DNA from: a virus
Taxonomy: Duplodnaviria; Heunggongvirae; Uroviricota; Caudoviricetes
IMG/VR virus record: IMGVR_UViG_2526164669_000023
Coordinates: 1 to 49,435 of that record
Reading direction: 5' to 3' (one strand)
Length of the DNA stretch: 49,435 nt
This document shows positions 5,765 through 23,766 of the stretch, in pieces (positions within the stretch are counted from its first letter, which is position 1; each line of letters opens with the position of its first letter). Made by a program: the position numbers and the translations under genes. A model generated the notes under the pieces. The model was given only the letters and a program-made list of their open reading frames with translations, ran no database searches and had not been told where the DNA came from.

Positions 5765-5838
5765 GTTTTTCTCCTTAATTAAGGTTGAGCGAATACCTGC
5801 CATTTCTGGCATAAATTCAGTTTCGAATAGTCAATTAA

Positions 5839-6009
5839 TTAAAGTTCATGTGCCATCTGGTCTTTTTCGGCACAAGCTTCACTGCAATATTTTCTCGGTT
5901 CGTCTTTTGATAAAATCCCGTGCATGAAGTGAAGCATTCTTTCAATAGCTTTGCTTTCTTCAACGTCTTTTTTGCAAAGGTGGTAAGCACATTTTATTTT
6001 CTTAGTCAT
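5839..6009 (-). CDS. ydaE: Small Cys-rich protein, YdaE-like
   Basis: ORF below the track size cutoff, between racC and kilR; start codon overlaps the kilR stop. My reading gives a 56-aa Cys-containing product only if a T-run near 5938-5941 is T3; homopolymer count and the left boundary (5838/5839) are uncertain. Confidence 0.4.
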   Translation of the reverse strand: MTKKIKCAYHLCKKDVEESKAIERMLHFMHGILSKDEPRKYCSEACAEKDQMAHEL

Positions 6010-6230
6010 CACCATGACTCCGCCTTTACAGGTAAACCATCACGACCGAGGAAGACTTTAATCATGCGGTCAGTAATGCATGTTTTTGTGGTCAGGTTAC
6101 GAATATATAGTTTTCGCTTTTTAATATTGTTTGCCGAGGCAATATATGTCCGGCCTTCATGAAGAACATAATCGCCAGGAGTCACACACTGACGTGGTAT
6201 TTCATCAGTTCCGAAGTGATGTGCAATCAT
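6009..6230 (-). CDS. kilR: Cell-division inhibitor KilR
   Basis: 73 aa from [32 protein letters not shown]; matches recalled KilR; Rac position. Confidence 0.85.
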
Positions 6231-6671
6231 AATTATCTCCATTTTTACAAATGAACTTTGTTGATGCGGTGCCTGGTGCCTCCAGGTGACTGCAACCAGT
6301 TAACAATTACAGTCGGCTTTCCCACCCAAACCAATAAGGACTAACATGACTTTTAACTGTGCCACGTGCGCTTAGCCGCATTCACCGCATCACAAAATTC
6401 ACTTTAAAAAGGGCGGACATCAGCCGAACTTCAAGAAAAAAACTGATGCCGCCAGGACTACACACAGCAATGTCGTTATTTACAACCGGAGGCGCACTCC
6501 CACCATTTAAATTTAACAGACAAGACCGACTCTTTATGGATATCGGAAATGCGCCTTCGTGTTGTGCCCGGTTTTATTTCACCACCTCCGGGCTTCGGTG
6601 GTCTCGGCTATACCCCTACAGCGAGAGCTTGTGTTAACATTTCAATACCCTTACAGTTGAGAGTTATTGAT

Positions 6672-7160
6672 ATGTTGGATGTATTTACTCCATTGTTGAA
6701 ACTTTTTGCTAACGAGCCACTCGAAAGACTTATGTATACGATTATCATTTTTGGTCTCACTCTCTGGCTGATACCGAAAGAGTTTACTGTCGCATTCAAT
6801 GCTTATACTGAAATACCTTGGCTCTTTCAGATTATCGTTTTTGCCTTTTCTTTCGTGGTCGCCATTTCCTTCTCAAGATTGCGAGCACATATTCAAAAGC
6901 ATTATTCATTACTACCAGAGCAACGAGTATTGCTTCGTTTATCTGAGAAAGAAATCGCTGTATTTAAAGATTTCCTTAAAACAGGAAATCTTATTATCAC
7001 TTCTCCTTGCCGTAACCCGGTTATGAAAAAATTAGAACGGAAGGGCATCATTCAACATCAGAGTGATAGCGCAAACTGTTCTTATTATCTCGTCACCGAA
7101 AAATACTCCCATTTTATGAAGTTATTCTGGAACAGCAGGAGTAGACGTTTTAATCGTTAG
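6672..7160 (+). CDS. sieB: Superinfection exclusion protein B
   Basis: 162 aa from internal Met MLDVFTPLLKLFANEPLER; membrane-protein-like N-terminus; opposite strand to the early leftward operon as in Rac. Confidence 0.8.
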   Translation: MLDVFTPLLKLFANEPLERLMYTIIIFGLTLWLIPKEFTVAFNAYTEIPWLFQIIVFAFSFVVAISFSRLRAHIQKHYSLLPEQRVLLRLSEKEIAVFKDFLKTGNLIITSPCRNPVMKKLERKGIIQHQSDSANCSYYLVTEKYSHFMKLFWNSRSRRFNR

Positions 7161-7312
7161 CTTACTGTGTGCTTCTCCAACCATCGGCGCGCACCAGTTT
7201 CGGTTTTAAATGTTTTGCTTTTGGTATACGTCATGGCAGTGAACGTTCCATCCTGGTTGGGGAACACGCCGCACACCAGGGATTCGTTGTTGCCGAGGTC
7301 GATTTTTTGCAT
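7157..7312 (-). CDS. ydaF: Small protein YdaF-like
   Basis: 51-aa ORF MQKIDLGNNESLVCGVFPNQDGTFTAMTYTKSK... read by hand on the minus strand; below track cutoff. Confidence 0.5.
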   Translation of the reverse strand: MQKIDLGNNESLVCGVFPNQDGTFTAMTYTKSKTFKTETGARRWLEKHTVS

Positions 7313-7321
7313 TTTGCGAAT

Positions 7322-7456
7322 CTCACATCTTGTTGCTACGTATAGCGACTTCTGCCTGCCAGAGATCCCAGTCGTTGCTGCGTAAAGCCTGCACAGCCTG
7401 GTTGTAAGTGATACCGCAACAATCCATCAAATACTGAACTACTTCGTAATGCACCA
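7322..7456 (-). CDS. ydaG: Small protein YdaG-like
   Basis: 44-aa ORF MVHYEVVQYLMDCCGITYNQAVQALRSNDWDLWQAEVAIRSNKM; good RBS (AAGGGGAGAG) upstream; first gene of the leftward operon. Confidence 0.5.
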
Positions 7457-7619
7457 TCTTATCTCTCCCCTTAACGCCGGGTGGCGGAACTAACTGCTGC
7501 ACTGCAAAATTTGAATCCCGCCGTCATGTTCATACGCCTCGGGCTGGCTACTTAACCCCTTACCACTGCCTGGTAACTCGAAGTATTGCCCGGCGTTCTG
7601 TGGGGCGGGGTGGGTGGTA

Positions 7620-7680
7620 TGCTGGAACTATAGGTAATGCCTAATTGATTGTCAATAGGCTATGCCTAATGTTTTGAGCG
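7620..7680 (-). promoter_or_regulatory. Leftward early promoter (PL-like) with operator half of a 24-bp inverted repeat
   Basis: Minus strand shows TTGACA (7650-7655), 17-bp spacer, TATAGT (7627-7632); operator-like 24-mer at 7648-7671 is the near-perfect reverse complement of 8294-8317. Confidence 0.55.
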
Positions 7681-7765
7681 TAACCTAATAGGTGATGGCG
7701 ACAGCAGAAAGTGATGGGGGGGTTAAATAACGGAATCCAGGAGTTTTCCGTCAGACCATATAAGT

Positions 7766-8242
7766 TTAAGTTCCAGTTTTTGTGATGTTCTGGCTTTTCC
7801 GTTCAGATTCTAGAGCTTTCAGATACTTACCCACTTTCATTTCCATCGCTGCTATGTAGGCGCGAACATCGTGGTCAACCCAATCTGGTTCTGTAGCATT
7901 TCCAGATAACAGGAAAGCTACAATCGCTCTTATTTCATCAGAGGCTGCTTGATAAAGGTTGTTTATATCTAAAAGTTCACTTTTTGTATCTGAATTGGTG
8001 GGAGTTGGTATGGGGTATTCGTTAAGCCCCCAATGCTCTGGACCAACAACATCAGAAAAGAAACGCCATAATTCTGGAAGTTTATCTTTACTTATAGAGC
8101 CTTTCTTAATCCAGTCATAAATTGATGGTGGTTGGACTTTGAAGTGGCGTGCGACCTCCGCCTTTGATTTGACGGATCCCGATGCGATTTTTTTGTTAAT
8201 GGCCTGCTCTATCGCTCGGCCTAAGTCTTTACCACTAAGCAT
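7766..8242 (-). CDS. racR: Prophage repressor RacR
   Basis: 158-aa ORF; N-terminus MLSGKDLGRAIEQAINKKIASGS (HTH region); divergent from ydaS as in Rac. Confidence 0.85.
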   Translation of the reverse strand: MLSGKDLGRAIEQAINKKIASGSVKSKAEVARHFKVQPPSIYDWIKKGSISKDKLPELWRFFSDVVGPEHWGLNEYPIPTPTNSDTKSELLDINNLYQAASDEIRAIVAFLLSGNATEPDWVDHDVRAYIAAMEMKVGKYLKALESERKSQNITKTGT

Positions 8243-8365
8243 TGCTTAATATTCTCCTATGCGCATTACATTAGGCAATCCCTACCCTTACCGCATTAGG
8301 CACAGCCTATTGACAATTGCGTTAGGCGTCGCCTAATATTTCTGTGTGTTTTTGGAGTTCATTCG
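8243..8365. promoter_or_regulatory. racR-ydaS divergent promoter/operator region
   Basis: Repeated ATTAGGC / GCCTAAT motifs, palindrome TTAGGCGTCGCCTAA, and TTGACA (8310-8315) followed by TAATAT about 18 bp downstream, oriented toward ydaS. Confidence 0.55.
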
Positions 8366-8662
8366 ATGAAAAAAGAGAACTATTCATTCAAGCAAGCTTG
8401 TGCTGTTGTCGGTGGGCAATCAGCAATGGCTAGGCTTTTAGGTGTATCACCTCCAAGCGTAAATCAATGGATCAAAGGGGTACGTCAATTGCCTGCCGAG
8501 AGATGTCCAGCAATTGAACGTGCAACAAGAGGTGAGGTTCTGTGCGAAGAACTTCGTCCTGATATTGACTGGTCATATTTACGACGTTCGGCATGTTGTT
8601 CGCAGAATATGTCAGTGAAGCAACTAAATGACAGTAACAAATCCTCATTTGATCATACCTGA
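8366..8662 (+). CDS. ydaS: Cro-like HTH protein YdaS
   Basis: 98-aa ORF with HTH-like N-terminus; first rightward gene opposite racR. Confidence 0.8.
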   Translation: MKKENYSFKQACAVVGGQSAMARLLGVSPPSVNQWIKGVRQLPAERCPAIERATRGEVLCEELRPDIDWSYLRRSACCSQNMSVKQLNDSNKSSFDHT

Positions 8663-8684
8663 AACATCAAGAGGCAAATGATTC

Positions 8685-9107
8685 ATGAAAATCAAGCATG
8701 AGCACATCGAATCAGTGTTGTTTGCCCTAGCAGCCGAAAAAGGGCAGGCATGGGTAGCCAATGCAATTACTGAAGAATATCTGCGCCAGGGGGGCGGCGA
8801 ATTGCCCCTGGTTCCAGGCAAGGACTGGAACAATCAGCAGAATATCTATCACCGTTGGTTGAAAGGTGAAACGAAAACGCAAAGAGAAAAAATTCAGAAG
8901 CTGATCCCAGCAATTCTGGCAATCCTTCCGCGCGAGCTGCGTCACCGACTCTGCATCTTCGATACCCTGGAACGCCGTGCATTACTGGCGGCGCAGGAAG
9001 CGTTAAGTACGGCAATTGATGCGCATGATGATGCAGTCCAGGCCGTTTACCGGAAAGCGCATTTCAGCGGCGGCGGTTCTTCCGACGATTCTGTCATTGT
9101 TCATTAA
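8685..9107 (+). CDS. ydaT: YdaT (toxic early protein / CII-like position)
   Basis: 140-aa ORF following ydaS; Rac gene order. Confidence 0.75.
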   Translation: MKIKHEHIESVLFALAAEKGQAWVANAITEEYLRQGGGELPLVPGKDWNNQQNIYHRWLKGETKTQREKIQKLIPAILAILPRELRHRLCIFDTLERRALLAAQEALSTAIDAHDDAVQAVYRKAHFSGGGSSDDSVIVH

Positions 9108-9119
9108 GCAAAAGTTTCC

Positions 9120-9977
9120 ATGCTGTTTGTGCTTATTCTAAGCCACCGGGCAGCATCATACGGGGCAATTATGGCCGCATTACCATACATGCAACTGTAC
9201 ATAGCTGATTACCTGGCTGACACCATGCATTTGTCAGCAGAGGAGCATGGTGCGTATTTGTTGCTGATGTTCAATTACTGGCAAACAGGAAAGCCAATAC
9301 CTAAAAACAGGCTGGCAAAAATTGCCCGTCTGACTAACGAGCGATGGGCTGATGTTGAACCATCCTTGCAGGAGTTTTTTTGCGATAACGGCGAGGAATG
9401 GGTGCATCTTCGGATTGAGGAAGATCTGGCATCAGTCAGGGAAAAATTAACCAAAAAATCAGCCGCAGGAAAAGCATCTGTTCAGGCCAGAAGAAGCAGA
9501 AAGGAAGCAGATGTTCAAACAAAACAAGAGAGAAATTTAACAGGTGTTCAAACAGATGTTGAAGTGGTGTTTGAACATGATGTCAACACAAAGGCAACTA
9601 ATAAAGATACAGATAAAGATCTAAAAACAGATCCCCCCCTAAATCCCCCCCGGGGGAATCGAGGTGTTAAAAAGTTTGACCCTCTGGATATTGCTTTGCC
9701 GAACTGGATTTCTGTCTCGCTTTGGCGTGAGTGGGTTGAATTTCGCCAGGCATTGCGTAAACCGATTCGAACGGAGCAGGGCGCTAACGGGGCGATACGG
9801 GAGCTGGAAAAATTCCGCCAGCAGGGTTTTTCACCTGAGCAGGTGATTCGATACAGCATCGCCAATGAATACCAGGGCTTGTTCGCGCCAAAAGGTGTTC
9901 GACCTGAGACGTTACTCCGACAGGTTAACACCGTCTCGTTACCGGATAGTGCGATCCCGCCAGGCTTCAGGGGGTAA
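9120..9977 (+). CDS. ydaU: Replication-initiation-like protein YdaU
   Basis: 285-aa ORF in the lambda O-equivalent position upstream of the DnaC-like gene. Confidence 0.7.
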   Translation: MLFVLILSHRAASYGAIMAALPYMQLYIADYLADTMHLSAEEHGAYLLLMFNYWQTGKPIPKNRLAKIARLTNERWADVEPSLQEFFCDNGEEWVHLRIEEDLASVREKLTKKSAAGKASVQARRSRKEADVQTKQERNLTGVQTDVEVVFEHDVNTKATNKDTDKDLKTDPPLNPPRGNRGVKKFDPLDIALPNWISVSLWREWVEFRQALRKPIRTEQGANGAIRELEKFRQQGFSPEQVIRYSIANEYQGLFAPKGVRPETLLRQVNTVSLPDSAIPPGFRG

Positions 9978-9983
9978 CTGACC

Positions 9984-10718
9984 ATGAAAAATATTGCGGC
10001 AGGCGGCATTCTTGAACGTATCCGCAGACTGGCCCCGCCACATGTAACCGCCCCATTCAAAACGGTAGCGGAGTGGCGCGAGTGGCAACTTTCCGAAGGC
10101 CAGAAACGTTGTGAGGAGATCAACCGTCAGAATCGTCAGTTGCGGGTGGAAAAAATTCTGAACCGCTCTGGCATCCAGCCATTGCACCGCAAATGCTCGT
10201 TTGCGAATTACCAGGTGCAGAACGACGGTCAGCGATACGCGTTGAACCAGGCGAAATCTATCGCTGATGAACTGATGACCGGGTGTACAAATTTTGCGTT
10301 CAGCGGAAAACCTGGTACCGGAAAAAACCATCTGGCGGCGGCTATCGGGAATCGCCTGCTGAAAGATGGCCAGACAGTGATTGTGGTTACCGTGGCTGAT
10401 GTCATGAGTGCTCTACACGCCAGCTATGACGACGGGCAATCAGGCGAAAAATTTTTGCGGGAACTGTGCCAAGTGGATCTGCTGGTTCTTGATGAAATTG
10501 GCATTCAGCGCGAGACAAAAAACGAGCAGGTGGTGCTGCACCAGATTGTTGATCGCCGGACAGCGTCGATGCGCAGCGTGGGGATGCTGACAAACCTGAA
10601 CTATGAGGCCATGAAAACATTGCTCGGCGAGCGGATTATGGATCGCATGACCATGAACGGCGGACGCTGGGTGAATTTTAACTGGGAGAGCTGGCGTTCG
10701 AATGTTGGCTTGCGATGA
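9984..10718 (+). CDS. ydaV: DnaC/IstB-like replication ATPase YdaV
   Basis: 244-aa ORF with Walker A GKPGTGKNHL and Walker B LLVLDEIG; lambda P-equivalent position. Confidence 0.8.
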   Translation: MKNIAAGGILERIRRLAPPHVTAPFKTVAEWREWQLSEGQKRCEEINRQNRQLRVEKILNRSGIQPLHRKCSFANYQVQNDGQRYALNQAKSIADELMTGCTNFAFSGKPGTGKNHLAAAIGNRLLKDGQTVIVVTVADVMSALHASYDDGQSGEKFLRELCQVDLLVLDEIGIQRETKNEQVVLHQIVDRRTASMRSVGMLTNLNYEAMKTLLGERIMDRMTMNGGRWVNFNWESWRSNVGLR

Positions 10719-10826
10719 TTTTTATGAGGAAATAATCGACGAATGAGGGCTAATGTCTGGTCACCCGGTTGACAATTACAAATATTTTATTGACGATGAA
10801 TGGAAAATGCGTGACGATTACAATAT

Positions 10827-11960
10827 ATGACTTGTCAAAGTATAATGAGAGATTGCATGAAGATTAACCATGAGGATTTAATTGATCTTATAAAGGCATC
10901 ACTGGATGCGAATTACAGCGAAGTTCGTAGTGTTAGTAATCGCATTGTTCGCGCAATTAGCGCTCAGGATGCTGACTTAGCAAAGCAAATTAAGTCTATC
11001 ATCCGTAAAAAAGGGGTACCATTACGTAGCTCTGGTTATACGGACAGTTTGCCCTTAGATCCGAAATCAAGGATGCCTTTAGTGGAAGAAGTCGAATGGC
11101 CTGCAACGCCTTTATTTCTTTCTGATGAATCACAGCATATTTTTCATGCTTTTATTCAGAATGTTATCCATCAGAATGAACTTATAGAGAATGGAATTCC
11201 AGGTAAATTGAATTTACTTCTTTCTGGTCCGCCAGGAACAGGTAAGACATTAGTCGCTGGTCATATCGCATCCAAATTAAACAAACCGCTCTATGTTGTT
11301 CGGCTTGACTCTGTTATTTCTTCTCTGTTAGGTGATACAGCGAAGAACCTAAGACAGATTTTTGACTTCGTCCCGACAAAAGATGGTGTGTTATTTCTTG
11401 ATGAAGTAGATGCGGTTGCTAAGCTTCGTGATGACAATCAGGAAGTTGGAGAGTTAAAAAGAGTTGTTAACACATTAATCCAAGGACTGGATTCTCTTGA
11501 TGATTCTGCTATTGTCATTGCTGCAACTAATCATTCGAAGCTATTGGATCCAGCAATTTGGAGACGTTTCCCATATAAAATTAGCTTTGGTTTGCCTGGA
11601 CAAGATGTCAGATGTGCTATGTGGGAACATTTTTTATTTAGAGATGATACGGATTCATTTCTAAGTAAAATGTTATCTATCATATCAACTGGGCTAACAG
11701 GTGCTGATATTGAAAATATCAGTTTATCTGCAAGAAGGCATAGTGTTTTATCTGGCAATGGACTGGATATACCATCTGTTGTTTATGCTATATTGAATAG
11801 CGTTGCAGATAGTACAGCAATTCCTTTTGGTAAGGATATAAATTCGAGTGTTAAGAAAAATTTAGCGAAGGAATTATCTAAGTTTAAATTATCACAGGCA
11901 GATATCGGTAGACTTTTAAATGTGAGCAGGCAAACTATATCAGGTTATTTCAAGGAATAA
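10827..11960 (+). CDS. Classical-clade AAA+ ATPase with C-terminal HTH (candidate defense ATPase, IetA-like)
   Basis: Walker A LLLSGPPGTGKT, Walker B VLFLDEVDA, sensor-1 IAATN, Arg-finger region LDPAIWRRFPY; C-terminal XRE-like HTH LSQADIGRLLNVSRQTISGYF. AT-rich relative to flanks. Alternative start at Met11 (10857). Confidence 0.75.
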   Translation: MTCQSIMRDCMKINHEDLIDLIKASLDANYSEVRSVSNRIVRAISAQDADLAKQIKSIIRKKGVPLRSSGYTDSLPLDPKSRMPLVEEVEWPATPLFLSDESQHIFHAFIQNVIHQNELIENGIPGKLNLLLSGPPGTGKTLVAGHIASKLNKPLYVVRLDSVISSLLGDTAKNLRQIFDFVPTKDGVLFLDEVDAVAKLRDDNQEVGELKRVVNTLIQGLDSLDDSAIVIAATNHSKLLDPAIWRRFPYKISFGLPGQDVRCAMWEHFLFRDDTDSFLSKMLSIISTGLTGADIENISLSARRHSVLSGNGLDIPSVVYAILNSVADSTAIPFGKDINSSVKKNLAKELSKFKLSQADIGRLLNVSRQTISGYFKE

Positions 11961-11962
11961 TT

Positions 11963-12538
11963 ATGGTCAGTGAAAATAAAGCTAAAATTTTAAACCCAAT
12001 AATTACTTTATTGAAGCCACCAACGCCAGAGGCGATTCCTGTTGGAGGGAAAAGTCGTAAAAATATTGTTGATTCACGGTTGAAACAACAGCGTGAAGTT
12101 TTATCCTCAGAGATAGATTCCATATTAAGAACAGAAGGTGAAATAGTTAAACATCGTGGTAAGTATCATATAGTAACAAGTATGTTTGAGGACTCATATG
12201 CACCATCGTTTATACCAGATTCATTATTCTGTCCCAGTGTTGAATGTAAGATAGTTGCACCAGCATACAATGGATATTTAATTGAGGTCAATAGCAATGC
12301 TTTATTGAAGTTGAAAAATAAAATTAATAATGCAAAAGCTATTACTGATCTTGTGGATATTTCAAGGGTTAGAAGTGTTAGTCTTTTTGATTCATCTTGT
12401 ACATTGCGAAATAGTAGCCTTGATTCGCTCTGGAATACAGTTAAGGCTTTGAATACATTTCAATTTAATATGTGGCTTATGCCTTTTTTTGATGAGCTTT
12501 CTAGAGAGTCTGTAGTTTCAACTTTTTTAAATTTTTAA
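11963..12538 (+). CDS. Hypothetical protein, middle gene of ATPase/protease cassette
   Basis: 191-aa ORF starting 3 nt after the ATPase stop; AT-rich; no motif I recognise. Confidence 0.55.
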   Translation: MVSENKAKILNPIITLLKPPTPEAIPVGGKSRKNIVDSRLKQQREVLSSEIDSILRTEGEIVKHRGKYHIVTSMFEDSYAPSFIPDSLFCPSVECKIVAPAYNGYLIEVNSNALLKLKNKINNAKAITDLVDISRVRSVSLFDSSCTLRNSSLDSLWNTVKALNTFQFNMWLMPFFDELSRESVVSTFLNF

Positions 12539-12741
12539 ATGATGGTATCATCGCTTTTGGTTATTCAGATTTTGACATAAAAACTATAAATCAAGATGCT
12601 GCTGTTGGCGGGGATAATATAGTCATAGTTCCACCGTTACTTATTGAAGCGATAAAAAAGTATCGTAAATCAGGTCAAGCATCCGTTACCGTCACTGTAG
12701 AGACTAAAGATAGTTTAAACAGGATACTGAATAGCAGTGCT

Positions 12742-14229
12742 GTGTATCGTATAGATCCTGTATCACCGCTAAACGTAACAGATACTCCTCCTGGTAATGG
12801 GGCTGAACCTGTTCCACCAATATTGGGGGATAAGAAAATGCCAACTGTAGTTGTAATTGATGGTGGGTGTAATGCGAAATCATATTCAAATTTAAATATA
12901 TATAAACTAAATCCGCTAATTCCAGATCATGATGCAGATTGTAAACATGGTAATAAAGTTGTATCGTTGTTATGTCACGGTTATGCTTGGAATAATAATT
13001 TAAACTTACCTAAATTGCAATGTAGCTATATAAGTGCACAGGCTATTGCGAAAAGGGGAGTGTTGAAACAACCAACTCCGGATCAATTTTTAAATTATTT
13101 AAGAATGGTTGCTGACAAAACGTCATCTATCGCCAAGGTCTGGAATCTTTCGTTTAATGAAGACGCTCCTCATTATAACTGTAATGAGATAAGTTATCTG
13201 GGACATAAAATCAGTTTGTTGGCTCGAGAATTTGGTATTCTGCCTGTAATATCTATCGGTAATGTTTCAAAGAACGAAAAACAAAAAAATCTTTGTCCGC
13301 CCGCAGATTGTGAGTCAGGAATTACAGTAAGTGGGAGAACGGCCAATCATGAAGGAATGCCTTCAGATGGCTGTCCTTTAAGTCGGAAAGGCCCTGCTCC
13401 TGCAGGAATGAAAAAACCTGAGTTATCATGGTTTTCTCGAGTTAGGGTGATAGGTGGAACAGTAGATATCGGAACAAGTTTTAGTGCTCCATTAGTTTCA
13501 TCTATTGCTGCTCATACCTTTTCGAATATTAAAAATGCCACTCCTGATTTGGTTAGGGCATTATTGATTAACAGGAGTGAGTTGCTTTCTCATGATGATG
13601 CATTAGGATGGGGGACTCCTTGGGATGGCGATTTACTGCCATGGTATTGTAAAGATGGCAGTGTCACATTAACGTGGATATCTAAGTTAAAGGCTGGGGC
13701 TGCTTATTATTGGAACGATCTTCCATTACCTCCAGAGATGTTAGTTAATGGTAAATTAGTTGGTGAGATATCTCTGACAGCTATACTAAAACCTAAGGTT
13801 TCTGAGTTCGGAAGTGAGAACTATTTTTCGACAAGGCTCCAATGTTCGTTACAGGCAATAAAAGAAATTAACGGAACGCTAAAAACAGAAAGCCTTCTTG
13901 GGTCAATGAAAGAATCTTCTGTTGATGAGCGTAAAGCTAGAAATGAACTTTCTAAATGGAGCCCTATTCGCCATCATGCAGAGTCGTTTAAGAGAAAAGA
14001 TATAACAGGGTGTAAAATTCGGCTTTATGCTAGGATATATGCTAGAGATTTGTATCAGTATGGGTTAAATAACCAACGGGAGCTTGAAGAGCAAGAGGTT
14101 TCCTTTGTTTTAACTTTTAAAAGTGTATCAGGATCGTCCTCAATATATACATCAATGGTTCAGCAACTTGGTGTTTATGTTGAAAGTGCTGTTATAGATA
14201 ATCACATTAACATAGATGTTAATAAGTGA
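12742..14229 (+). CDS. Subtilisin-like serine protease (peptidase S8) with C-terminal extension (IetS-like)
   Basis: D-H-S triad motifs in canonical order: VVVIDGGC, CKHGNKVV, GTSFSAPLVSSIAA; about 250 extra C-terminal residues. Track start is GTG; an ATG (MPTVVVIDGG) lies 32 codons downstream; in-frame stop at 12616. Confidence 0.75.
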   Translation: MYRIDPVSPLNVTDTPPGNGAEPVPPILGDKKMPTVVVIDGGCNAKSYSNLNIYKLNPLIPDHDADCKHGNKVVSLLCHGYAWNNNLNLPKLQCSYISAQAIAKRGVLKQPTPDQFLNYLRMVADKTSSIAKVWNLSFNEDAPHYNCNEISYLGHKISLLAREFGILPVISIGNVSKNEKQKNLCPPADCESGITVSGRTANHEGMPSDGCPLSRKGPAPAGMKKPELSWFSRVRVIGGTVDIGTSFSAPLVSSIAAHTFSNIKNATPDLVRALLINRSELLSHDDALGWGTPWDGDLLPWYCKDGSVTLTWISKLKAGAAYYWNDLPLPPEMLVNGKLVGEISLTAILKPKVSEFGSENYFSTRLQCSLQAIKEINGTLKTESLLGSMKESSVDERKARNELSKWSPIRHHAESFKRKDITGCKIRLYARIYARDLYQYGLNNQRELEEQEVSFVLTFKSVSGSSSIYTSMVQQLGVYVESAVIDNHINIDVNK

Positions 14230-14268
14230 TGTACAGAAACTGATTTATTATTATGTTAATTAATGTAT

Positions 14269-14295
14269 TACCCGCTTCGGCGGGTTTTTGTTTTT
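14269..14295 (+). terminator. Rho-independent terminator after the cargo cassette
   Basis: CCCGC-TTCG-GCGGG hairpin followed by TTTTTGTTTTT. Confidence 0.7.
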
Positions 14296-14419
14296 ATTTT
14301 CAATACGTTTGAAGTTATGGACGATGCCGGAATAGAATCAAAAATACTTAAGTAGCGCGCAGGGAGAAGAGTGATGGACCCCGAAGGGGAAGAGCTATTT
14401 ATCTGGAAGGATTCTGAAG

Positions 14420-14593
14420 ATGAAAATCGAAGAATTGCGTGAAATTTTTAGTGAAAATGGCCTCTATGCTGTGCGCGTTGAGAATGGGAAAGTTGTCTAC
14501 ACAACGTTAATCCCTGATGATCATGTAATTTTATCTATCGAGGCATTCATTGAATACCTTGAAAGGCTCGGTTTCAAGGTGATTCGGGAATGA
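14420..14593 (+). CDS. Small hypothetical ORF (57 aa)
   Basis: Hand-read ORF MKIEELREIFSENGLYAVRVENGKVVYTTLIPDDHV... in the gap between the cassette terminator and the next gene; below track cutoff. Confidence 0.3.
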   Translation: MKIEELREIFSENGLYAVRVENGKVVYTTLIPDDHVILSIEAFIEYLERLGFKVIRE

Positions 14594-14659
14594 GTTATAA
14601 TTCGTAAGCCAGCCTGAACAACTGGCATCTGCTGCACTGCGCCATCGAGAGATTGAGAA

Positions 14660-15259
14660 ATGGCGCATATACAACTGGTCAAACAAACTTCTTCTGGTTT
14701 ACTTCTCCCGGCGACGCCGGAGAGTTGCGATTTTCTGCATCAAATCAAAATAGGTGAGTGGATACACGCAGACTTTAAGCGTGTGCGTAACTACGCATTC
14801 CACAAGCGTTTTTTCAAACTCCTGCAACTGGGATTCGATTACTGGACTCCGGTCGGTGGGGCGATCACGCCTCGCGAACGAGAACTGCTGTCTGGTTTCG
14901 TTGATTACCTGTGCGAATCAGTTGGTCGGGAACACACGCCAGCCCTGAGTGATGCCGCAGAGCAATATCTGAATACAGTTGCGACACGCAGAACCCGGGA
15001 TACGGCATTGCTAAAGTCGTTTGAGGCTTTTCGCGAGTGGGTAACCATTCAGGCTGGATTTTACACCGAACATTTTTATCCGGACGGTAGCCGTGGACGC
15101 CGGGCGAAATCCATCGCTTTTGCGAATATGGACGAAACCGAGTTTCAGCAGGTTTATAAATCTGTACTGAATGTGCTGTGGAACTGGATCCTGTTCCGTA
15201 AATTTTCCTCTCCGGAGGAAGTCGAAAATGTGGTCGCACAGTTACTGGAGTTTGCGTAA
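14660..15259 (+). CDS. Lambdoid NinR-region protein (DUF1367-like)
   Basis: 199-aa ORF; first of three tightly coupled genes ending in Q; family assignment by recall only. Confidence 0.5.
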   Translation: MAHIQLVKQTSSGLLLPATPESCDFLHQIKIGEWIHADFKRVRNYAFHKRFFKLLQLGFDYWTPVGGAITPRERELLSGFVDYLCESVGREHTPALSDAAEQYLNTVATRRTRDTALLKSFEAFREWVTIQAGFYTEHFYPDGSRGRRAKSIAFANMDETEFQQVYKSVLNVLWNWILFRKFSSPEEVENVVAQLLEFA

Positions 15260-15549
15260 TGGTGGATTTACGTAAAGCGGCGCGGGGGCAGATGTGCACC
15301 GTCAGAATTCCTGGCTACTGCAATCACAATCCCGAAACTTCTGTGCTGGCGCATTACCGACTGGCGGGGACGTGCGGAACAGCGACAAAACCACACGATA
15401 TGCAGGCAGCGATTGCCTGTAGATCGTGCCACGATTTAATCGACGGGCGGGTAAAAACCAGTGATTACACCAAAGAAGAATTACGCCTGATGCATGCAGA
15501 AGGTGTTTTTCGCACACAAGAAATCTGGAGAAAGGAGGGATATTTATGA
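15259..15549 (+). CDS. Lambdoid small Cys-rich protein (DUF1364 / YbcO-like)
   Basis: 96-aa ORF with Cys/His pairs (CTVRIPGYCNHN...CRSCHD); start overlaps the previous stop. Confidence 0.5.
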   Translation: MVDLRKAARGQMCTVRIPGYCNHNPETSVLAHYRLAGTCGTATKPHDMQAAIACRSCHDLIDGRVKTSDYTKEELRLMHAEGVFRTQEIWRKEGYL

Positions 15550-16088
15550 TTTACCCAACGAATACAGGAAAAAGCGGAGAACACCTTCGTCTCACTACGC
15601 TGGAAAGTGTCTGGATTCAGGGAAAACTACGTATGTGGGGGCGCTGGTCATATATTGGTGGTGGCAGGTCAGGAAATATGTTCAATCAGTTGTTGGCATC
15701 CAAAAAATTGACGAAAACAGCCATCAATGAAGCCCTGCGCAGAATGAAAAAAGCGGGAATAGAGAAACCTGAGCTGGAAGCGTTTTTGCGAGAGATGATC
15801 AATGGTAAGCAAAAGAGCTGGCTGGCGCATTGTACTGATGCAGAGGCGTTATGTATTGATCGGGTTATAAGTGAGGTGCTGGCAGAACATCCGGGATTGA
15901 TTAGCATCCTCCGACAACGGTATGAGGGGCGAGGAATGAGTAAGAGAAGGATGGCCGGGTTACTAAACGAACAGTATCCAGAGTGGTGTTTTAGCACATG
16001 CGAAAAGCGAATTGCTAATTGGTTGGCTGTTGCTGAGTGTGCGCTATACATTCCCATGCGAGAATCATTTGCTCAAAAAATGGCTTGA
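15546..16088 (+). CDS. Late-gene antitermination protein Q-like
   Basis: 180-aa ORF immediately upstream of a promoter-plus-short-terminated-leader arrangement; position between NinR-type genes and the lysis cassette. Confidence 0.6.
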   Translation: MIYPTNTGKSGEHLRLTTLESVWIQGKLRMWGRWSYIGGGRSGNMFNQLLASKKLTKTAINEALRRMKKAGIEKPELEAFLREMINGKQKSWLAHCTDAEALCIDRVISEVLAEHPGLISILRQRYEGRGMSKRRMAGLLNEQYPEWCFSTCEKRIANWLAVAECALYIPMRESFAQKMA

Positions 16089-16171
16089 TTTCTTACGCAT
16101 AAACTGCTTCAATTCCGATACGCTTCGCAAAGCTGTATCGCGTGGCGAATTAATCGCATGAACTTCACCAG

Positions 16172-16198
16172 AACCCGCCATTGAGCGGGTTTTGTTGT
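16172..16198 (+). terminator. tR'-like intrinsic terminator of the late leader
   Basis: CCCGC-CATTGA-GCGGG hairpin then TTTTGTTGTT, about 85 nt downstream of Q; candidate pR' (TTGATT, 17-bp spacer, TTCAAT) at about 16085-16113. Confidence 0.55.
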
Positions 16199-16541
16199 TA
16201 TGTTTAACCATCTACGGGAGAGCTGGCGCTCTACTGACTGGTATTTTGATAACGAAATCTTAAATATTTTATATTGTGATTGTTAGTTGTCTAAATTTTA
16301 TGTATGTTAAGCGGCACAGGATTCCTCCTGCGACGAAGTTTTAGTGGAATCATTATTTACTTTTCTTATGCCAGCCTTTCCTTGAGGTTGGTTTTTTTAT
16401 ACCTGAAAAAGCAGGTTGGTACGTTAAACTTTATGATGGCTATGCAATTTTAGTTTCTCCTTTCCTGAACCCTATTGACTACATGGAATTTTCTTTGTTA
16501 TGTAAAGCGAGTTAATGTTGTTAAGTTGTTAGAGGATGATT

Positions 16542-17255
16542 ATGAGTGACAGTACTCTGCTCAGGAATTCTTCACTTTTTGTTGCTTACATGGGGTGTCT
16601 TGGGTGGGGAAGTGCTTATTTCTATGGCTGGGGTACTTCCTTTTACTATGGCTTTCCATGGTGGGTTGTCGGGGCCGGTGTTGATGATGTGGCCAGAAGC
16701 CTGTTTTATGCTGTCACAGTTATCGTTATATTCTTGGCTGGATGGGGGATCGGTATTGTCTTCTTTCTGGGGATCAAACAAAAAAATAATATGAAGGATT
16801 TGAGTGCTGTCAGGCTTTTTCTTGCGATATTGTTGCTTTTTGTTCCTCCGGCTCTGGAGTTTTCGGTAATTCATCAGCACTTTGTGCCAGATGCATTGGT
16901 TTTATGCGCTATTGTGGCATTAATAATTACCATGTTCGTCAGAACGGGCAGGAAGTTTATTTACGTTAAATGTATTTCTGAAGTGTCTTTTATTCGGCAT
17001 CACAAGATTGAGTGTGTTATGGCCGGATTCATGCTCTATTTCTGGTTGTTTTCGCTTATTGCTGGATGGTACAAACCTCAGTTTAAGAAGGAGTATCAGA
17101 CACTTCACTATGAGAGCGTTTGGTATTACGTTCTTGCTCGCTATGGTGATCGCTTGGTTTTATCAAAATCGTACAGGCACGGTAGTACGAATTTCGTTAT
17201 ACTTAATAGCGCACATACAGATGAATTTGAAATTAATATAGTCAAAGTGCGCTAA
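16542..17255 (+). CDS. Multi-pass membrane protein (moron, unknown function)
   Basis: About 237-aa ORF, AT-rich, aromatic/Gly-rich hydrophobic segments (GWGSAYFYGWGTSFYYGFPWWVVGAG...); RBS AGAGGA upstream of the second ATG. Confidence 0.6.
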   Translation: MSDSTLLRNSSLFVAYMGCLGWGSAYFYGWGTSFYYGFPWWVVGAGVDDVARSLFYAVTVIVIFLAGWGIGIVFFLGIKQKNNMKDLSAVRLFLAILLLFVPPALEFSVIHQHFVPDALVLCAIVALIITMFVRTGRKFIYVKCISEVSFIRHHKIECVMAGFMLYFWLFSLIAGWYKPQFKKEYQTLHYESVWYYVLARYGDRLVLSKSYRHGSTNFVILNSAHTDEFEINIVKVR

Positions 17256-17395
17256 AACATTATGAGTAACCGGGATATAGACTTTTCTGCTTGTTGTTCA
17301 GATATTTTTACTTGATTGTAGCTGACATACAAGATTTAAACGGTTGTGTTGGGTGGATTACAGCGCTAAACTGATTCAGTCAATATTTTTCAATC

Positions 17396-17471
17396 GGCCC
17401 TTTAGCTCAGTGGTGAGAGCGAGCGACTCATAATCGCCTGGTCGCTGGTTCAAATCCAGCAAGGGCCACCA
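17396..17471 (+). tRNA. tRNA with CAU anticodon (Ile2/Met type, ileZ-like)
   Basis: 76 nt; acceptor GGCCCTT/AAGGGCC, anticodon loop CTCATAA, T-arm GCTGG-TTCAAAT-CCAGC, 3' CCA. Confidence 0.8.
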
Positions 17472-17473
17472 TT

Positions 17474-17550
17474 CCGCCACTAGCTCATCGGGATAGAGCA
17501 TCAACCTTCTAAGTTGATTGTGCGAGGTTCGAGTCCTCGGTGGCGGACCA
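17474..17550 (+). tRNA. tRNA-Arg (anticodon UCU)
   Basis: 77 nt; acceptor CCGCCAC/GTGGCGG, anticodon loop CTTCTAA, T-arm CGAGG-TTCGAGT-CCTCG, 3' CCA. Confidence 0.8.
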
Positions 17551-18034
17551 TTCCATGCAAGTTTAGCTGGCAGCGCTATTAGCTCGGCGTAATAGGGCTA
17601 TTCGTTAGGCTCTGTTAGTTCACCATATTTCGTCAAAACTTTTCTTTTCAACGCTACAGTTAACGTTAATCATTACAAAAACTACTGCTGATGTAAGTCT
17701 TGTGAACTGTTATTTCTGAAGAGCTTACTGTGATTTATTGCGACAACGGAGTTAGCGTACTCCCAATTTGTTCATTTTTATGTTGTTTTTTTTCACAATT
17801 TCCTGTGAGAAATCAGAAGTCTGGATGAAATAATGCAAAATGGCATCTGAATCGATCGCAGTTTGGCATTCGAATCGATCATGATTTGGCATCCATCTCC
17901 GATCACAGTTTGGCATCACAATCGATCACGATTTGGCATACTTCCGATCATTGATTGGCATTCGCCAGTCACTCCGGGAATTAACTCTTTTCACCACAGT
18001 CTCCATTGCCGTGTTTAAACCAGTGGAGACGTCA

Positions 18035-19600
18035 ATGTCCAAAAAGAGAAAATCCAGGAGCACTATGGAAACTTGTTTTAAGATCCTTCAGCTCAAGTTC
18101 GATAAGAAGCTGACTAACCGTTGTATCGGACTGACGTTACACATCAGCGCCTCAACCGTTTTTGAGGTTCTTGCCCGCTTCAAAGCCTCTTCTCTGTCAT
18201 GGCCATTACCTGCTGATATATCCCATGACACGCTGGAGAAACTCATTTTCCCGCCCAAAGACACCTCTGCGTCAGAGCTTGTTATGCCTGACATGCTGTA
18301 CTTCGATACGGAAATGAGAAAACCTGGCGTGACGCGCCAACTGTTGTGGATGGAATACAAGGCACAGGCGGGTGACAAAGCGATGGGATACTCACACTTC
18401 TGCCGTTGCTACCGGAAGTGGAAAAAAACGCGACGCCTCTCCATGCGACAGGAGCATCGTGCTGGCGAAAAGCTCTTTATCGACTTCTGTGGTCCTACGC
18501 TTCCTGTTATTAATCCGGACACCGGAGAGATACGCCGCGTGGCAATCTTCGTGGCTGTAATGGGGGCGTCCAACTATACCTATGTTGAAGCGTGCGAAGG
18601 TCAGGACATGATGTCATGGTTAAATGCCCACAGCCGTTGCCTGACCTTCCTGGGCGGCGTACCGAAGCTGCTCATCCCCGATAACCTCAGAAGCGCAGTG
18701 AAAAAAGCCGATCGCTATGAGCCTGTCATCAACGACAGTTATCAGGCGCTGGCTGAGCACTATGGCACGGTTATTATCCCGGCCCGCCCGCGCAAACCTA
18801 AAGATAAACCAAAAGCAGAAAACGGCGTCCTCATCGTCGAGCGATGGCTTCTTGCCCGCATCCGTAATGAAACCTTCCACACGCTCAGGGCGCTGAATGC
18901 ACGCCTTCGGGAGTTGCTGACGGACATGAATAACCGACCAATGAAGGGATACGGTAATCAAACCCGCGCAGAACGCTTCCGCATGCTGGATGCACCAGCA
19001 CTCTCTCCGCTGCCTCTGGAGCCTTATGAATACACGGAATACAAAGCCGTGAAGGTTGGCCCTGACTACCACGTTGAATATGCCCGTCACTGGTACTCCG
19101 TTCCACACGAACTGGTCGGTCAGCGTCTGTCACTGAAGGTGGGGCAGTCGGTGGTACAGCTCTGGCACAAGGGGCAGTGTGTGGCGCAACATCCGCGCAG
19201 CACACATGAATATAAACACACAACCAATCCGCTTCACATGCCAGAACGCCACCGGCGGCATGGGACATGGACACCGGAACGCCTTATCGAGCAGGGAAAC
19301 CGTACAGGTCCGTCCACAGGCCGGGTGGTTGAATCCATGCTGAAAGCCAAACCCCATCCGGAGCTGGCTTACCGTGCAGTCCTGGGTCTGCTGGCACTTC
19401 AGAAAAAATACGGCCCGGAACGGCTGGAAAAGGCCTGTTACGTTGCCCTGCACTATAACGCCCCGGACAGACGCTTTATCGACAATCTGCTGCGTCATCA
19501 TCGGGATAACGTTGAGCTTCCGTTATCCCGCCAGGGCGAACAACATCCGGCATATGCTTCAGAGCATGAAAACCTGCGTGGTCCTGGCTACTACCACTGA
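18035..19600 (+). CDS. istA: IS21-family transposase IstA
   Basis: 521 aa from MSKKRKSRSTMETCF; N-terminal HTH and DDE-type core; followed by an IstB ATPase. Confidence 0.8.
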   Translation: MSKKRKSRSTMETCFKILQLKFDKKLTNRCIGLTLHISASTVFEVLARFKASSLSWPLPADISHDTLEKLIFPPKDTSASELVMPDMLYFDTEMRKPGVTRQLLWMEYKAQAGDKAMGYSHFCRCYRKWKKTRRLSMRQEHRAGEKLFIDFCGPTLPVINPDTGEIRRVAIFVAVMGASNYTYVEACEGQDMMSWLNAHSRCLTFLGGVPKLLIPDNLRSAVKKADRYEPVINDSYQALAEHYGTVIIPARPRKPKDKPKAENGVLIVERWLLARIRNETFHTLRALNARLRELLTDMNNRPMKGYGNQTRAERFRMLDAPALSPLPLEPYEYTEYKAVKVGPDYHVEYARHWYSVPHELVGQRLSLKVGQSVVQLWHKGQCVAQHPRSTHEYKHTTNPLHMPERHRRHGTWTPERLIEQGNRTGPSTGRVVESMLKAKPHPELAYRAVLGLLALQKKYGPERLEKACYVALHYNAPDRRFIDNLLRHHRDNVELPLSRQGEQHPAYASEHENLRGPGYYH

Positions 19601-19616
19601 CAGAAGGAACAACCGT

Positions 19617-20372
19617 ATGAGTGATAATCTGTTAAACAAACTGACCCAACTGAAACTCCCGGCGATGGCCGGGAGCCTGATACGGCAACGGGAAACGCCT
19701 CAGACTTACGACGAACTGTCGTTCGAGGAAAGGCTGACACTGCTGGTTGATGACGAGCTTCTGAGCAGAGAAAACAGTCGTGTGGCACGGTTGAGAAAAA
19801 ATGCCTGCCTGAAATATCAGGCAACACCGGAAGGGCTGCGTTATCCGGCCTCAAGAGGTCTGCGGGCTGAACAGATGAGGGAACTGCTGAACGGCCACTA
19901 CATAATCCACAGGAAAAACCTACTGATAACCGGTCCGACAGGATGCGGTAAGAGCTGGATAGCCAATGCGCTGGGCGAACAGGCATGTCGACAGAAATAC
20001 AGCGTCCGGTACTGTAGAACCGGGCGATTACTGGAACAGTTGGCTCAGGGACGTGTTGATGGCAGTTGGCTGAAATATCTGAAACAGTTGCAAAAAATAC
20101 AGGTTCTAATCCTGGACGATCTGGGGCTGGAACAGTTAAGTAACGCCCAGTGTAATGACCTTCTGGAGATCACAGAGGATCGTTACGGACAAAGCAGCAC
20201 GATAGTGGTAAGCCAGTTCCCGGTAGATAAATGGCATGGTCTGATGGAGAACCCAACAACAGCAGATGCCATCCTGGACAGACTGGTACATAACTCACAC
20301 AGAGTGGTCCTTCAGGGAGAGTCCCTGAGGAAAAATCCCCCGACAGTGGAAAGCAGCGAAAAAACGAGTTAA
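19617..20372 (+). CDS. istB: IS21-family helper ATPase IstB
   Basis: 251 aa from MSDNLLNKLTQLKLPAMAG; Walker A GPTGCGKSWIANAL, Walker B VLILDDLG. Confidence 0.8.
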   Translation: MSDNLLNKLTQLKLPAMAGSLIRQRETPQTYDELSFEERLTLLVDDELLSRENSRVARLRKNACLKYQATPEGLRYPASRGLRAEQMRELLNGHYIIHRKNLLITGPTGCGKSWIANALGEQACRQKYSVRYCRTGRLLEQLAQGRVDGSWLKYLKQLQKIQVLILDDLGLEQLSNAQCNDLLEITEDRYGQSSTIVVSQFPVDKWHGLMENPTTADAILDRLVHNSHRVVLQGESLRKNPPTVESSEKTS

Positions 20373-21147
20373 AAAGCGGTAGAAAAAGTTAAGTTCCCGG
20401 TTGATCGAATGGATGCGAATCGCTGATCGAACTTCGATGCCAATCCGTGATCGAATAGAGCGGAATACGCAAATAACGTAAATTGTATGCGTATGATACA
20501 TATTTATACATATATTTAAATATGAAAACTAATTAGTTTTTGATGTCATATAAATTATCGGTAATATTACTCCCGACCCGAAAGGCAGCAAGTTTCTGTT
20601 CACAGGGGTGTTACCCGCTGTCTTGCGGGTCATTGCAGGCATCCGTTTAATCATAATGAAGGGCTGTTATCAGTATCAGTGTCATTATTGTGGTTACGGA
20701 GGCCTGCTCTATGTGCAGGTATCGTATAGTGGTTATTACATCAGCCTTAGGTTGGTAATGCCGGTTCGATTCCTGTTCTCCGCAACTTCATTGTTTTTTG
20801 GACAAGTTTTTACAGCACTGGCGGTTTTCGTGAGGAACAGATCTCTTTAATACCTTTATCGTCCCTCATTCTGTAATGGAGATCGGTTACAGACTCAGTG
20901 CTGTATTTTTTATGACACAGAAATGGCGCATTGCCCACGAAAGGAAGCAGGATTTAGCGTGGAGTAACCAGTGATGCGCCATCTCTGTGTCGGAAAACAT
21001 GAATTGGGGCGTTCCTCAGTGCGAGGGTGGTTTATAGAGTCGGTTTAGCGGGAAACCACAGTATCCACGTAAAGTGGAATACTTCGGGAGGCACCCGATG
21101 CCCCAAACCCAATAATCATTATAATATTGTGTCCTTTTATCGTTTTA

Positions 21148-22851: not shown

Positions 22852-22974
22852 CAGGCATTACAGCAGCCCTTCATGGTGAGGGGTTGCGATAATGCCAAAG
22901 CTCGTCATCGGCACCCGCCGCGCACCCAGCGTACTGGCCGATAGCGGGCTTTTTTATTCATAAAGCGAGGCTGT

Positions 22975-23766
22975 ATGAGCGAGAAATTGAAGATCGTCTA
23001 TCGCCCGTTACAAGAACTGTCTCCGTATGCACACAATGCCAGGACACACAGCCCTGAGCAGGTGGCACAACTGGTAGAAAGCATTAAGCAATTCGGCTGG
23101 ACTAATCCAGTGCTGATTGATGAAAAGGGCGAAATTATTGCTGGTCACGGTCGCGTTATGGCGGCTGAGGCGCTCAAAATGGATTCGGTTCCGGTTATTG
23201 TTCTGTCTGGTCTGACGGATGATCAGAAAAAGGCGTACCGCCTGGCAGATAATCGCCTGCCGATGAATGCTGGCTGGGATGAAGATCTGTTACGGATGGA
23301 GCTGTCGGACCTAATCAATGCTGATTTTGATATCTCCCTGACAGGATGCAGCCCGACAGAAATTGATGAACTGTTGACGGATGTTTTGCCCGGTACAGGA
23401 AATGAGGAGGAACCGTACACGACGAAAATTGATACGCCTGTTTATGAGCCGTCGGGCGATAAACCAGATATCAGTGAACTGTACGACGATACGAAAACTC
23501 AGGAGTTGATCAGCCGGATACGTTCGGCGTCCCTTGATCCTGATATTGAGAAATTCCTCCTGTGTGCGGCAGAACGTCATACGGTGTTTAATTTCAGCAG
23601 AATTGCGGACTATTACGCTCACGCCCCCGCTGAAATTCAGTGCTTTTTCGAGGAATCGGCGCTGGTGATCATTGATTATCAGCAGGCTATTGAAAATGGA
23701 TTTGTCCGGATGACGCAGCGTATGGTGGAGATCATGCATGGCGGGGAGGAGGAGGAATATGCGTGA
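22975..23766 (+). CDS. ParB-like nuclease domain protein
   Basis: 263-aa ORF; N-terminal ParB/Srx-type motif (LIDEKGEIIAGHGRVMAA); acidic C-terminus; upstream of terminase genes. Confidence 0.6.
   Translation: MSEKLKIVYRPLQELSPYAHNARTHSPEQVAQLVESIKQFGWTNPVLIDEKGEIIAGHGRVMAAEALKMDSVPVIVLSGLTDDQKKAYRLADNRLPMNAGWDEDLLRMELSDLINADFDISLTGCSPTEIDELLTDVLPGTGNEEEPYTTKIDTPVYEPSGDKPDISELYDDTKTQELISRIRSASLDPDIEKFLLCAAERHTVFNFSRIADYYAHAPAEIQCFFEESALVIIDYQQAIENGFVRMTQRMVEIMHGGEEEEYA

Follow-up and report, generated by a model that had tools for sequence, protein, structure and literature searches.

The stretch of DNA analysed here, referred to throughout as the window, comprises positions 1-49,435 of the IMG/VR record IMGVR_UViG_2526164669_000023 (Caudoviricetes), and is a stretch of the Escherichia coli OkiPb01675 genome (NZ_AP042478.1) in which the first gene, intR, adjoins ttcA, the attachment locus of the Rac prophage. 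Our subject is a 400-bp segment at 14270-14669, termed the seam, which lies between a low-GC cargo segment (10706..14269, + strand, 3.56 kb, about 35% GC) encoding the proteins IetA and IetS (IetAS) and the gene irsA (DUF1367), and which contains a terminator-like hairpin, a short form of the gene rem and a leader with further predicted RNA structures. The seam is a functional module, a widespread prophage control module and not a recombination scar or debris, and we consider it likely to be a conserved backbone module of Rac/Qin-type lambdoid prophages; this degree of belief is a joint one and covers the whole of our best explanation, namely the module, a swap of cargo beside it and an antirepressor role for the short-form Rem protein (Rem-short).

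The seam opens with an intrinsic-terminator-like hairpin, ACCCGCTTCGGCGGGT / ACCCGCTTCGGCGGG followed by a T-run, recognised by structure match at 14270-14295 on the + strand, the 20-nt hairpin itself occupying 14270-14289. It has a 6-bp stem with five GC pairs, a TTTTTGTTTTT tail and a predicted folding energy of -10.9 kcal/mol (z -2.8), and in relatives it is found about 70 nt past the hok stop codon. This 20-nt hairpin is the pivot common to the 3′ ends of hok genes, the 3′ ends of cargos and the 5′ ends of seams. Identity with the window breaks at 14269/14270 in relatives that bear hok and at 14289/14290 in IetAS relatives with another seam, with further breaks at about 14491 in Qin-type rem and at about 14669 in 118UI. 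The abrupt change of identity falls at the same position in independent genome pairs, as at other lambdoid mosaic boundaries, and the same boundaries are reused in independent combinations. A sharp mosaic boundary had been proposed in the first-pass annotation and does exist, at 14270-14289, some 30 bp to the left of where it had been placed; the terminator reported 3′ of the cassette is likewise present as a hairpin with a T-run, and is part of the conserved backbone rather than of the cassette alone. Elsewhere in the window, a terminator-like hairpin at 43971 (ACCCGCGAAAGCGGGTTTTT) resembles that of the seam and stands 3′ of a 391-codon gene (42788-43986) which lies among baseplate genes, is annotated 'type I restriction endonuclease' and is a possible moron or defence gene among the tail genes.

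Some match to the 400-bp seam is present in 3333 of 5426 complete E. coli genomes, and at least 80% of it is covered in 286; most of the 3333 matches are confined to 14270-14491 and bear the annotation 'rem: protein Rem' (Qin type), and some are confined to 14610-14669. The seam can be exchanged as a unit of about 370-400 bp and exists in four or more alleles, which hold rem in its short form, rem in its long form, an open reading frame (ORF) of 70 codons or no obvious ORF (GmM062). This diversity was drawn from exact-protein contig look-ups and IMG/VR pattern scans, a scan of species-representative genomes for Rem relatives having given only nine loci. The seam with the 70-codon ORF (MKNSQESFSTKF...), which has no Pfam match, lies between the same hairpin and irsA at 9435-9901 of locus L019, and also in L018, L020-L022 and L024; the L018 copy is split by an inserted element that has transposase-like ORFs. 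In this small sample the 70-codon ORF co-occurs with HTH_3 repressors of 139-140 residues, and short-form rem with the repressor RacR. The fourth allele, at 10108-10573 of locus L049 (GmM062), lies between hokD and irsA and is AT-rich without a convincing conserved ORF; its 3′ end keeps the hexamer TATACT, a GTCAG/CTGGC version of the UGAAC-loop hairpin described below and the start-codon hairpin.

The position just 5′ of the terminator is a cargo hotspot bounded by ydaV and the 20-nt hairpin. In many prophages the usual order runs from the replication genes through DUF1627, a variable set of small genes and hok/sok, with cargo after these in some, to the hairpin, rem, irsA, YbcO and a Q-like DUF1133 gene, and in the prophage of RM13745, which occupies the same ttcA/intR site as the window, the interval between ydaV and the equivalent of 14270 holds DUF1627, DUF977, small genes, DUF551 fragments and hokD. 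The IetA/IetS cassette has replaced DUF1627 through hok/sok 3′ of ydaV (9984..10718, + strand, 244 amino acids), leaving the terminator in place; the left breakpoint lies in the last codons of ydaV, where the match ends at 10705 for K-12 Rac and at 10708 for RM13745. The cassette, at 10827-14229, is a Gao_Iet defence system according to PADLOC, with an IetA ATPase (10857-11960, + strand, 5e-100) adjoining an IetS S8 peptidase (11963-14229, + strand, 1e-58 plus an N-terminal fragment). Its defence role here is assigned by sequence, and in the window copy, and only there, IetS is split by a 1-nt frameshift into ORFs of 191 and 495 codons, the RefSeq record and relatives having an intact protein of 755 residues; at 12532-12537 the window reads T5 and the RefSeq record of the same strain T6, which may be a homopolymer sequencing or polishing difference.

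The IetAS cassette occurs in one of the 5426 complete RefSeq E. coli genomes, and in a wider collection 290 assembly blocks list a protein identical to this IetA. In nine of nine places examined, IetAS lies in a Rac-family prophage directly 3′ of a 244-codon ydaV, and the window-like stretch spans from inside ydaU through the hairpin to 14289. Beyond the hairpin these relatives carry the same rem seam (L017, L023) or otherwise an unrelated seam of about 467 bp with the 70-codon ORF, in which case homology stops at 14289 and returns at 14660, the irsA start codon. Other cargos, a 59-codon ORF with Fic and a two-gene helix-turn-helix (HTH) cassette, lie between hok and rem and are flanked by direct repeats of the 20-nt hairpin, one after hok and one just before the rem block. 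These repeats stand at 3170-3189 and 5005-5024 in L004, at 4948 and 5789 in L007, and at 4947 and 5790 in L008, L009, L012 and L013, the upstream copy of the duplicated hairpin being sometimes degenerate. As in other prophage-encoded defence hotspots, variable cargo (here IetAS, Fic with a small partner, and hok/sok) is held at a fixed backbone position; unlike the known ones, this hotspot lies in the early-right operon of a lambdoid (Rac-type) prophage, between the replication genes and the antirepressor and Q genes.

Within the seam, the 57-codon ORF listed in the first-pass annotation is present on the + strand at 14420..14593, and is a short form of rem (PF27490) with a Shine-Dalgarno sequence, GGAAGGA (14405-14411), 8 nt upstream. 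The true start is 14420, because a 2-nt indel upstream, in the small stem-loop at 14379-14389, puts the upstream ATG out of frame in the window. All 82 of 82 homologues, including the 98%-identical P0001, have a PF27490 'Rem' match in precomputed annotations; the ORF gave no family against PADLOC and a Pfam copy without the PF27490 model, sub-threshold PASTA and DsbC_N matches being noise. A 'YcfA/HicA-like' source label on the homologue P0033 was discarded, as Pfam gives it no support. In relatives, Rem-short is encoded downstream of hok and the terminator and upstream of the nin/Q genes. Short forms (54-58 residues) and long forms (83-95 residues) can be aligned over their whole length except for an insert of about 28 residues in the long forms, with 49-60% identity that falls mostly across the N-terminal 26 residues, and the alignment of the short-form C-terminus with long Rem includes the motif D-x-x-[IL]-L-x-x-E-x-F. 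The full-length architecture of characterised Rem, 83-86 residues with a central segment, is therefore not that of the 57-residue form. The break at about 14491 separates, at population level, the shared N-terminal 24-26 codons from the short- and long-form C-termini, and alignment with K-12 Qin confirms a breakpoint within the gene near codon 24-26.

Around rem the seam carries several candidate control signals, all on the + strand. A sigma-70-like promoter, TTGAAG-18-TAGAAT, is predicted from its consensus match 5′ of rem at 14309..14338, and its TAGAAT and the downstream block of the 5′ untranslated region (UTR) are conserved across E. coli alleles, K-12 Qin included. A small stem-loop in the rem 5′ UTR, CCCC-GAA-GGGG (14379..14389), keeps its stem in relatives; it was considered as a boxB-like N-utilisation site and dropped, the loop varying between GAA, GAACA, GAGA and CAUAAA. 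A second promoter-like element, TTCAAG-17-TATAAT (14573..14601), matches in sequence, its 3′ part lying past the rem stop codon, and a TAnnnT hexamer, often TGnTAnnnT, stands 5-7 nt upstream of the next hairpin in every allele inspected.

That hairpin, GCCAG/CTGGC with the 9-nt loop CCUGAACAA (14608..14626), is supported by covariation. Six stem sequences occur in loci gathered through Rem or IetA homologues, in which the hairpin itself was not used as a query, and all have a UGAAC loop; the IMG/VR pattern scan added many stem variants, in which the loop was fixed by the pattern and its invariance is not independent. Among 32 distinct variants, paired cells make up 90.6% of the total, compared with 64% in shuffles (none of 500 shuffles reached the observed value), 51 cells show double changes compared with 15.8 in shuffles, compensatory changes occur in five of the five pairs, and slid registers give only 14-44% pairing. 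Counts of G-U against C-A pairs leave the strand assignment ambiguous. At its gathering score Rfam reported nothing at the seam or in ten related loci, and across 14100-14800 gave only chance-level matches at E values up to 10; a search for sequences matching or complementary to the loop likewise returned chance-level counts. The hairpin is single-copy in the window, and the idea that it might be half of a nutL/nutR-like pair was abandoned for lack of a second copy.

A further predicted hairpin, GCGCCAT...ATGGCGC (14639..14666), encloses the ribosome-binding region and pairs with the irsA start codon, and one relative has a compensatory GTGCCA/TGGCAC version. The leader up to ATGGCGCATA precedes different genes, encoding DUF1367, a 90-residue protein or ORFs of about 30 codons that begin 'MAQ...', and the right boundary of the module is therefore set at about 14669. 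In the last of these arrangements, seen in many viral contigs of IMG/VR (loci such as L056, L051 and L062), ORFs of about 30 codons (MAQ...ASDFL...) follow the hexamer, the UGAAC hairpin and the start-codon hairpin, and their stop codon overlaps the start of the next gene (ATGA), an arrangement that suggests a leader peptide or translational coupling. In the window the operon that follows, 14660..16088 on the + strand, consists of irsA (DUF1367, 14660-15259), YbcO (15259-15549) and a DUF1133 Q-like antiterminator (15546-16088).

The closest characterised relative of the encoded protein is Rem of the Qin prophage of K-12 (b1561; Ragunathan et al. 2023, PMC10448788), a member of the same Pfam family PF27490 and an antirepressor of DicA, ectopic expression of which raises dicBp 165-fold, its inducing signal being unknown (PMC10448788). 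From the terminator hairpin through the first 24 codons or so, Qin rem and the window share about 90% DNA identity; Qin rem likewise stands downstream of hokD and upstream of nin/Q genes, and both prophages have a short uncleaved CI-type repressor. The two differ in that Qin Rem has 83 residues and the window form 57, the central insert of about 28 residues being absent here and the C-terminal half being a different allele, and in that the partner repressor is DicA in Qin and would be RacR in the window. A second parallel is offered by the dinI-gfoA/gftA-irsA loci of the Gifsy prophages (Lemire, Figueroa-Bossi and Bossi 2011, PMC3121763), in which a terminator-like palindrome is followed, about 1.3 kb downstream of the replication genes, by an operon under LexA control that consists of dinI, a small antirepressor gene and irsA; the same study names RacR and DicA as repressors of the short, uncleaved GfoR/GtgR type (PMC3121763). 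The window shares the order palindrome, predicted promoter, small probable antirepressor gene, irsA: a terminator-like palindrome precedes rem, and irsA directly follows it. Both loci lie a short distance downstream of the replication genes in prophages with GfoR/GtgR-type repressors, RacR included; the RacR of the window has 158 residues, a weak HTH match only and no Peptidase_S24 domain. The Gifsy locus has a LexA box and dinI and the window seam has neither, and the link between Rem and GfoA rests on PSI-BLAST intermediates (PMC10448788). By analogy, the seam can be regarded as the Rac-type counterpart of the Gifsy induction locus, without dinI and the LexA box.

Judged by homology and position, Rem-short would most likely bind a short, non-cleavable CI-type repressor, here RacR, and so lift repression, the models for its action being Rem on DicA in Qin and GfoA/GftA in the Gifsy prophages; the signal that switches rem on would then be something other than a canonical LexA box. 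RacR is a repressor that is essential in K-12.

Several observations weigh against parts of this explanation. RacR is proposed as the partner of Rem-short from homology and position, prophages with this short allele have at least two types of repressor between them (RacR and a 154-residue HTH_3 protein), and the short form lacks the central insert of about 28 residues present in the Rem that was tested by experiment. No fold matches were found for the Rem-short model, and tblastn against phage records gave matches in Escherichia phages only, and so none in whatever Gifsy records the collection may include. No CTG-N10-CAG LexA box is present in 22 seam alleles or in the window at 14230-14700, and the gap between terminator and rem is 150 bp without an ORF, hence without dinI. 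Promoter and terminator activities are predicted from consensus matches, and in several genomes the Prokaryotic Genome Annotation Pipeline (PGAP) marks only the first 26 codons of rem, as a truncated pseudogene. Lastly, recombination at the hairpin may be illegitimate or reflect selection, because 20 nt falls short of the homology minimum of about 30 bp cited for Red-beta.

The most serious competitor to an antirepressor role accepts Rem-short as a real protein and gives it another target or role, the seam serving chiefly to control irsA-ybcO-Q through its terminator, promoters and UGAAC hairpin. In its favour, the hairpin and the hexamer are the most constant features of the seam and are kept where rem is replaced by the 70-codon ORF or by none, the short form is missing a third of the tested protein, and it is not strictly paired with one repressor type. 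Gifsy antirepressors, however, act across several repressors, so a loose pairing between Rem-short and its repressor is to be expected, and the homology of Rem-short to a tested antirepressor, together with a position relative to irsA that is the same as that of the Gifsy antirepressors, leads us to regard a different role as unlikely.

Considerably less probable is that the ORF represents long-form rem in decay and that only the non-coding signals of the seam matter. This would account for the PGAP label ('incomplete; missing C-terminus') on the first 26 codons in several genomes and for the end of DNA identity with Qin rem at about codon 24-26. Against it, alleles of the 54-58-residue form with as little as 56% amino-acid identity, from those of E. 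coli to Salmonella-like ones, agree in length and in where the stop codon falls, and the form is present in the published genome of phage Rac-SA53. Among short-form alleles the ratio of nonsynonymous to synonymous substitution rates (dN/dS) is 0.1-0.45, and distant pairs have a dS above 1 (saturated) with a dN of 0.14-0.35. The motif given above links the C-terminus to long Rem, and a confident AlphaFold2 model has an alpha-beta-beta-alpha fold, with a predicted local distance difference test (pLDDT) score of 88. Short-form rem is thus a real gene under purifying selection and no chance ORF, and selection, length conservation and the fold model together argue against the PGAP pseudogene annotation.

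The left part of the window was described in the first-pass annotation as Rac-like to about 10.7 kb and the right part as different from K-12 Rac, and both descriptions hold: 1-10705 is 99.35% identical to K-12 Rac, ending 13 nt before the ydaV stop codon, and right of 10705 the sole K-12 Rac match is 22952-23228, at 91.7%, within ynaK. What survives in K-12 as ynaK is 277 bp from the 5′ part of a ParB/Srx gene, the window version of which precedes the terminase genes and opens the late arm. From exactly 14270 to its right-hand end the window is colinear with the RM13745 prophage, with 98.2% identity over 14270-17833, 98.1% over 21145-46915 and 99.2% over 46959-49435. The sole break in this colinearity is an IS21-family element at 17834-20470 (istA/istB, annotated ISSso4), which by comparison with RM13745 is inserted between tRNA genes and lysis genes; a 6-bp overlap of the flanking alignments in RM13745 points to a target-site duplication. 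The same late arm is found in GmM062, in a prophage that terminates at uspF/ompN, the right border of the Rac locus, and at least 80% of it is present in 71 complete genomes. K-12 is without the seam and late arm because its ydaW, the first 450 nt or so of which match the RM13745 DUF1627 gene before it runs into Rz sequence, is a DUF1627 N-terminus fused to Rz by deletion. K-12 Rac thus lost the region by deletion, and is not a pure deletion derivative, since nothing in the DNA of the window corresponds to its rzpR/rzoR (Rz/Rz1), lomR or stfR/tfaR.

A Rac early arm joined to a different late arm, as first proposed, is therefore right as to a boundary and wrong as to what is joined, since a defence cassette meets a conserved backbone module; the late arm is not foreign to Rac, the same seam and arm being present in the Rac-locus prophages RM13745 and GmM062 and in phage Rac-SA53. 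That proposal had conceded that a close relative of K-12 Rac with the same late arm would make the difference one of simple deletion in K-12; such relatives were largely found, simple deletion being only partly true, and the whole-prophage alignment it recommended maps the breakpoint to 14270 as the right edge of the cargo swap. That the seam is a one-off scar joining a Rac early arm to a foreign late arm, with an incidental ORF, is scarcely credible: K-12 Rac similarity does stop at 10705 and is nearly absent beyond, and the IetAS cassette is rare, but seam and late arm are contiguous in other Rac-locus prophages and Rac-SA53, 3333 genomes have the seam in whole or in part, the ORF is under purifying selection, and K-12 is without the region through the ydaW-Rz deletion.

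Phage Rac-SA53 (KU052037.1; Jobling) belongs to what Jobling's letter terms full-sized Rac-like prophages (PMC5917428), and has an annotated attP, its attachment site, in ttcA, matching the integration site of the window. Its order is intR...recET...kilR...ydaT-U-V...hok-rem (58 amino acids)-irsA-ybcO-q, then the same structural genes as in the window, with late-arm identity of 96.6% over 12.7 kb and of 91.6-94.4% over further blocks. It differs from the window in its immunity region, which is of the DicA/DicC type, in having DUF1627...hok where the window has IetAS, in its seam allele (83% DNA and 72% protein identity) and in carrying LT-IIa and pertussis-like toxin morons, which the window is without.

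As to how the cargo was exchanged, the most likely route would be a cassette swap by homology-driven recombination between co-resident Rac-type prophages, with ydaU/ydaV as the left homology and the terminator/rem block as the right, and with Rad52-type recombinases, for example the prophage's own RecET, as the likely agents. De Paepe et al. (2014, PMC3945230) report that Rad52-like recombinases drive exchanges between diverged sequences, give a median mosaic size of about 400-500 bp and show that Rac RecT can use short stretches of diverged homology. The window resembles the lambdoid mosaicism described there in its sharp breaks at gene or signal boundaries and in an exchanged unit of about 400 bp, and it encodes RecET and has boundaries reused in many combinations; it departs from the usual lambdoid exchange in that its left pivot is only the 20-nt terminator hairpin, duplicated around cargo and shorter than the homology commonly invoked. 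The whole case is one of ordinary lambdoid-phage mosaicism at a cargo slot beside a member of a named family. What is new is modest: a short-form Rem in the antirepressor slot of RacR-type prophages, that slot being without SOS control, a covarying leader hairpin that is absent from Rfam, and a 20-nt terminator used as a cargo pivot.

In the finished arrangement the terminator would keep early transcription from running on into rem and the Q operon, the promoter-like sites would be active, and the leader, with its -10-like hexamer, UGAAC hairpin and start-codon-hiding hairpin, would feed into irsA-ybcO-Q. A bolder proposal, which we put forward only tentatively, is that the promoter-proximal hairpin at 14608-14626 represents a cis-acting RNA element, hitherto undescribed, by which enterobacterial lambdoid phages gate irsA-ybcO-Q, and that Rem-short is an antirepressor of RacR under a non-SOS signal. 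The element would consist of the 5-bp, freely covarying stem and the loop, YY-UGAAC-AM, which contains a YUNR U-turn motif, placed 5-7 nt past the conserved TAnnnT hexamer; as a gate, the hairpin could be a site for a phage or host factor or for an antisense RNA, or a 5′-terminal stabiliser.

Two regions outside the seam may be mentioned. Between the Q-like gene and the lysis genes, 16536-17547 encodes a predicted membrane protein of 239 residues (assigned to PF27470 TfpB in L023, an identical relative), and tRNA genes (Ile, Arg and one more) are found in 16536-17547 and 20715-20784; the position downstream of Q is the usual one for morons. At 1557-1735 the RalA antitoxin small RNA (Rfam RF02694, 225 bits) lies opposite ralR, as in K-12 Rac.

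For the biology of these prophages, the comparison means that K-12 Rac is a poor reference for the family, the late arm seen here being normal for full-size Rac-like phages. The cargo slot is useful for mining new cargo, since in the prophages examined it holds defence or toxin genes (IetAS, Fic pairs and hok/sok). Intact Rac-family prophages, it is suggested, carry a Rem-type antirepressor beside irsA, which is a candidate route for lifting RacR repression, and the covarying UGAAC hairpin upstream of the Q operon offers a cheap, testable regulatory lead; if it does gate irsA-ybcO-Q, it would govern the cascade from lysogeny to lysis.

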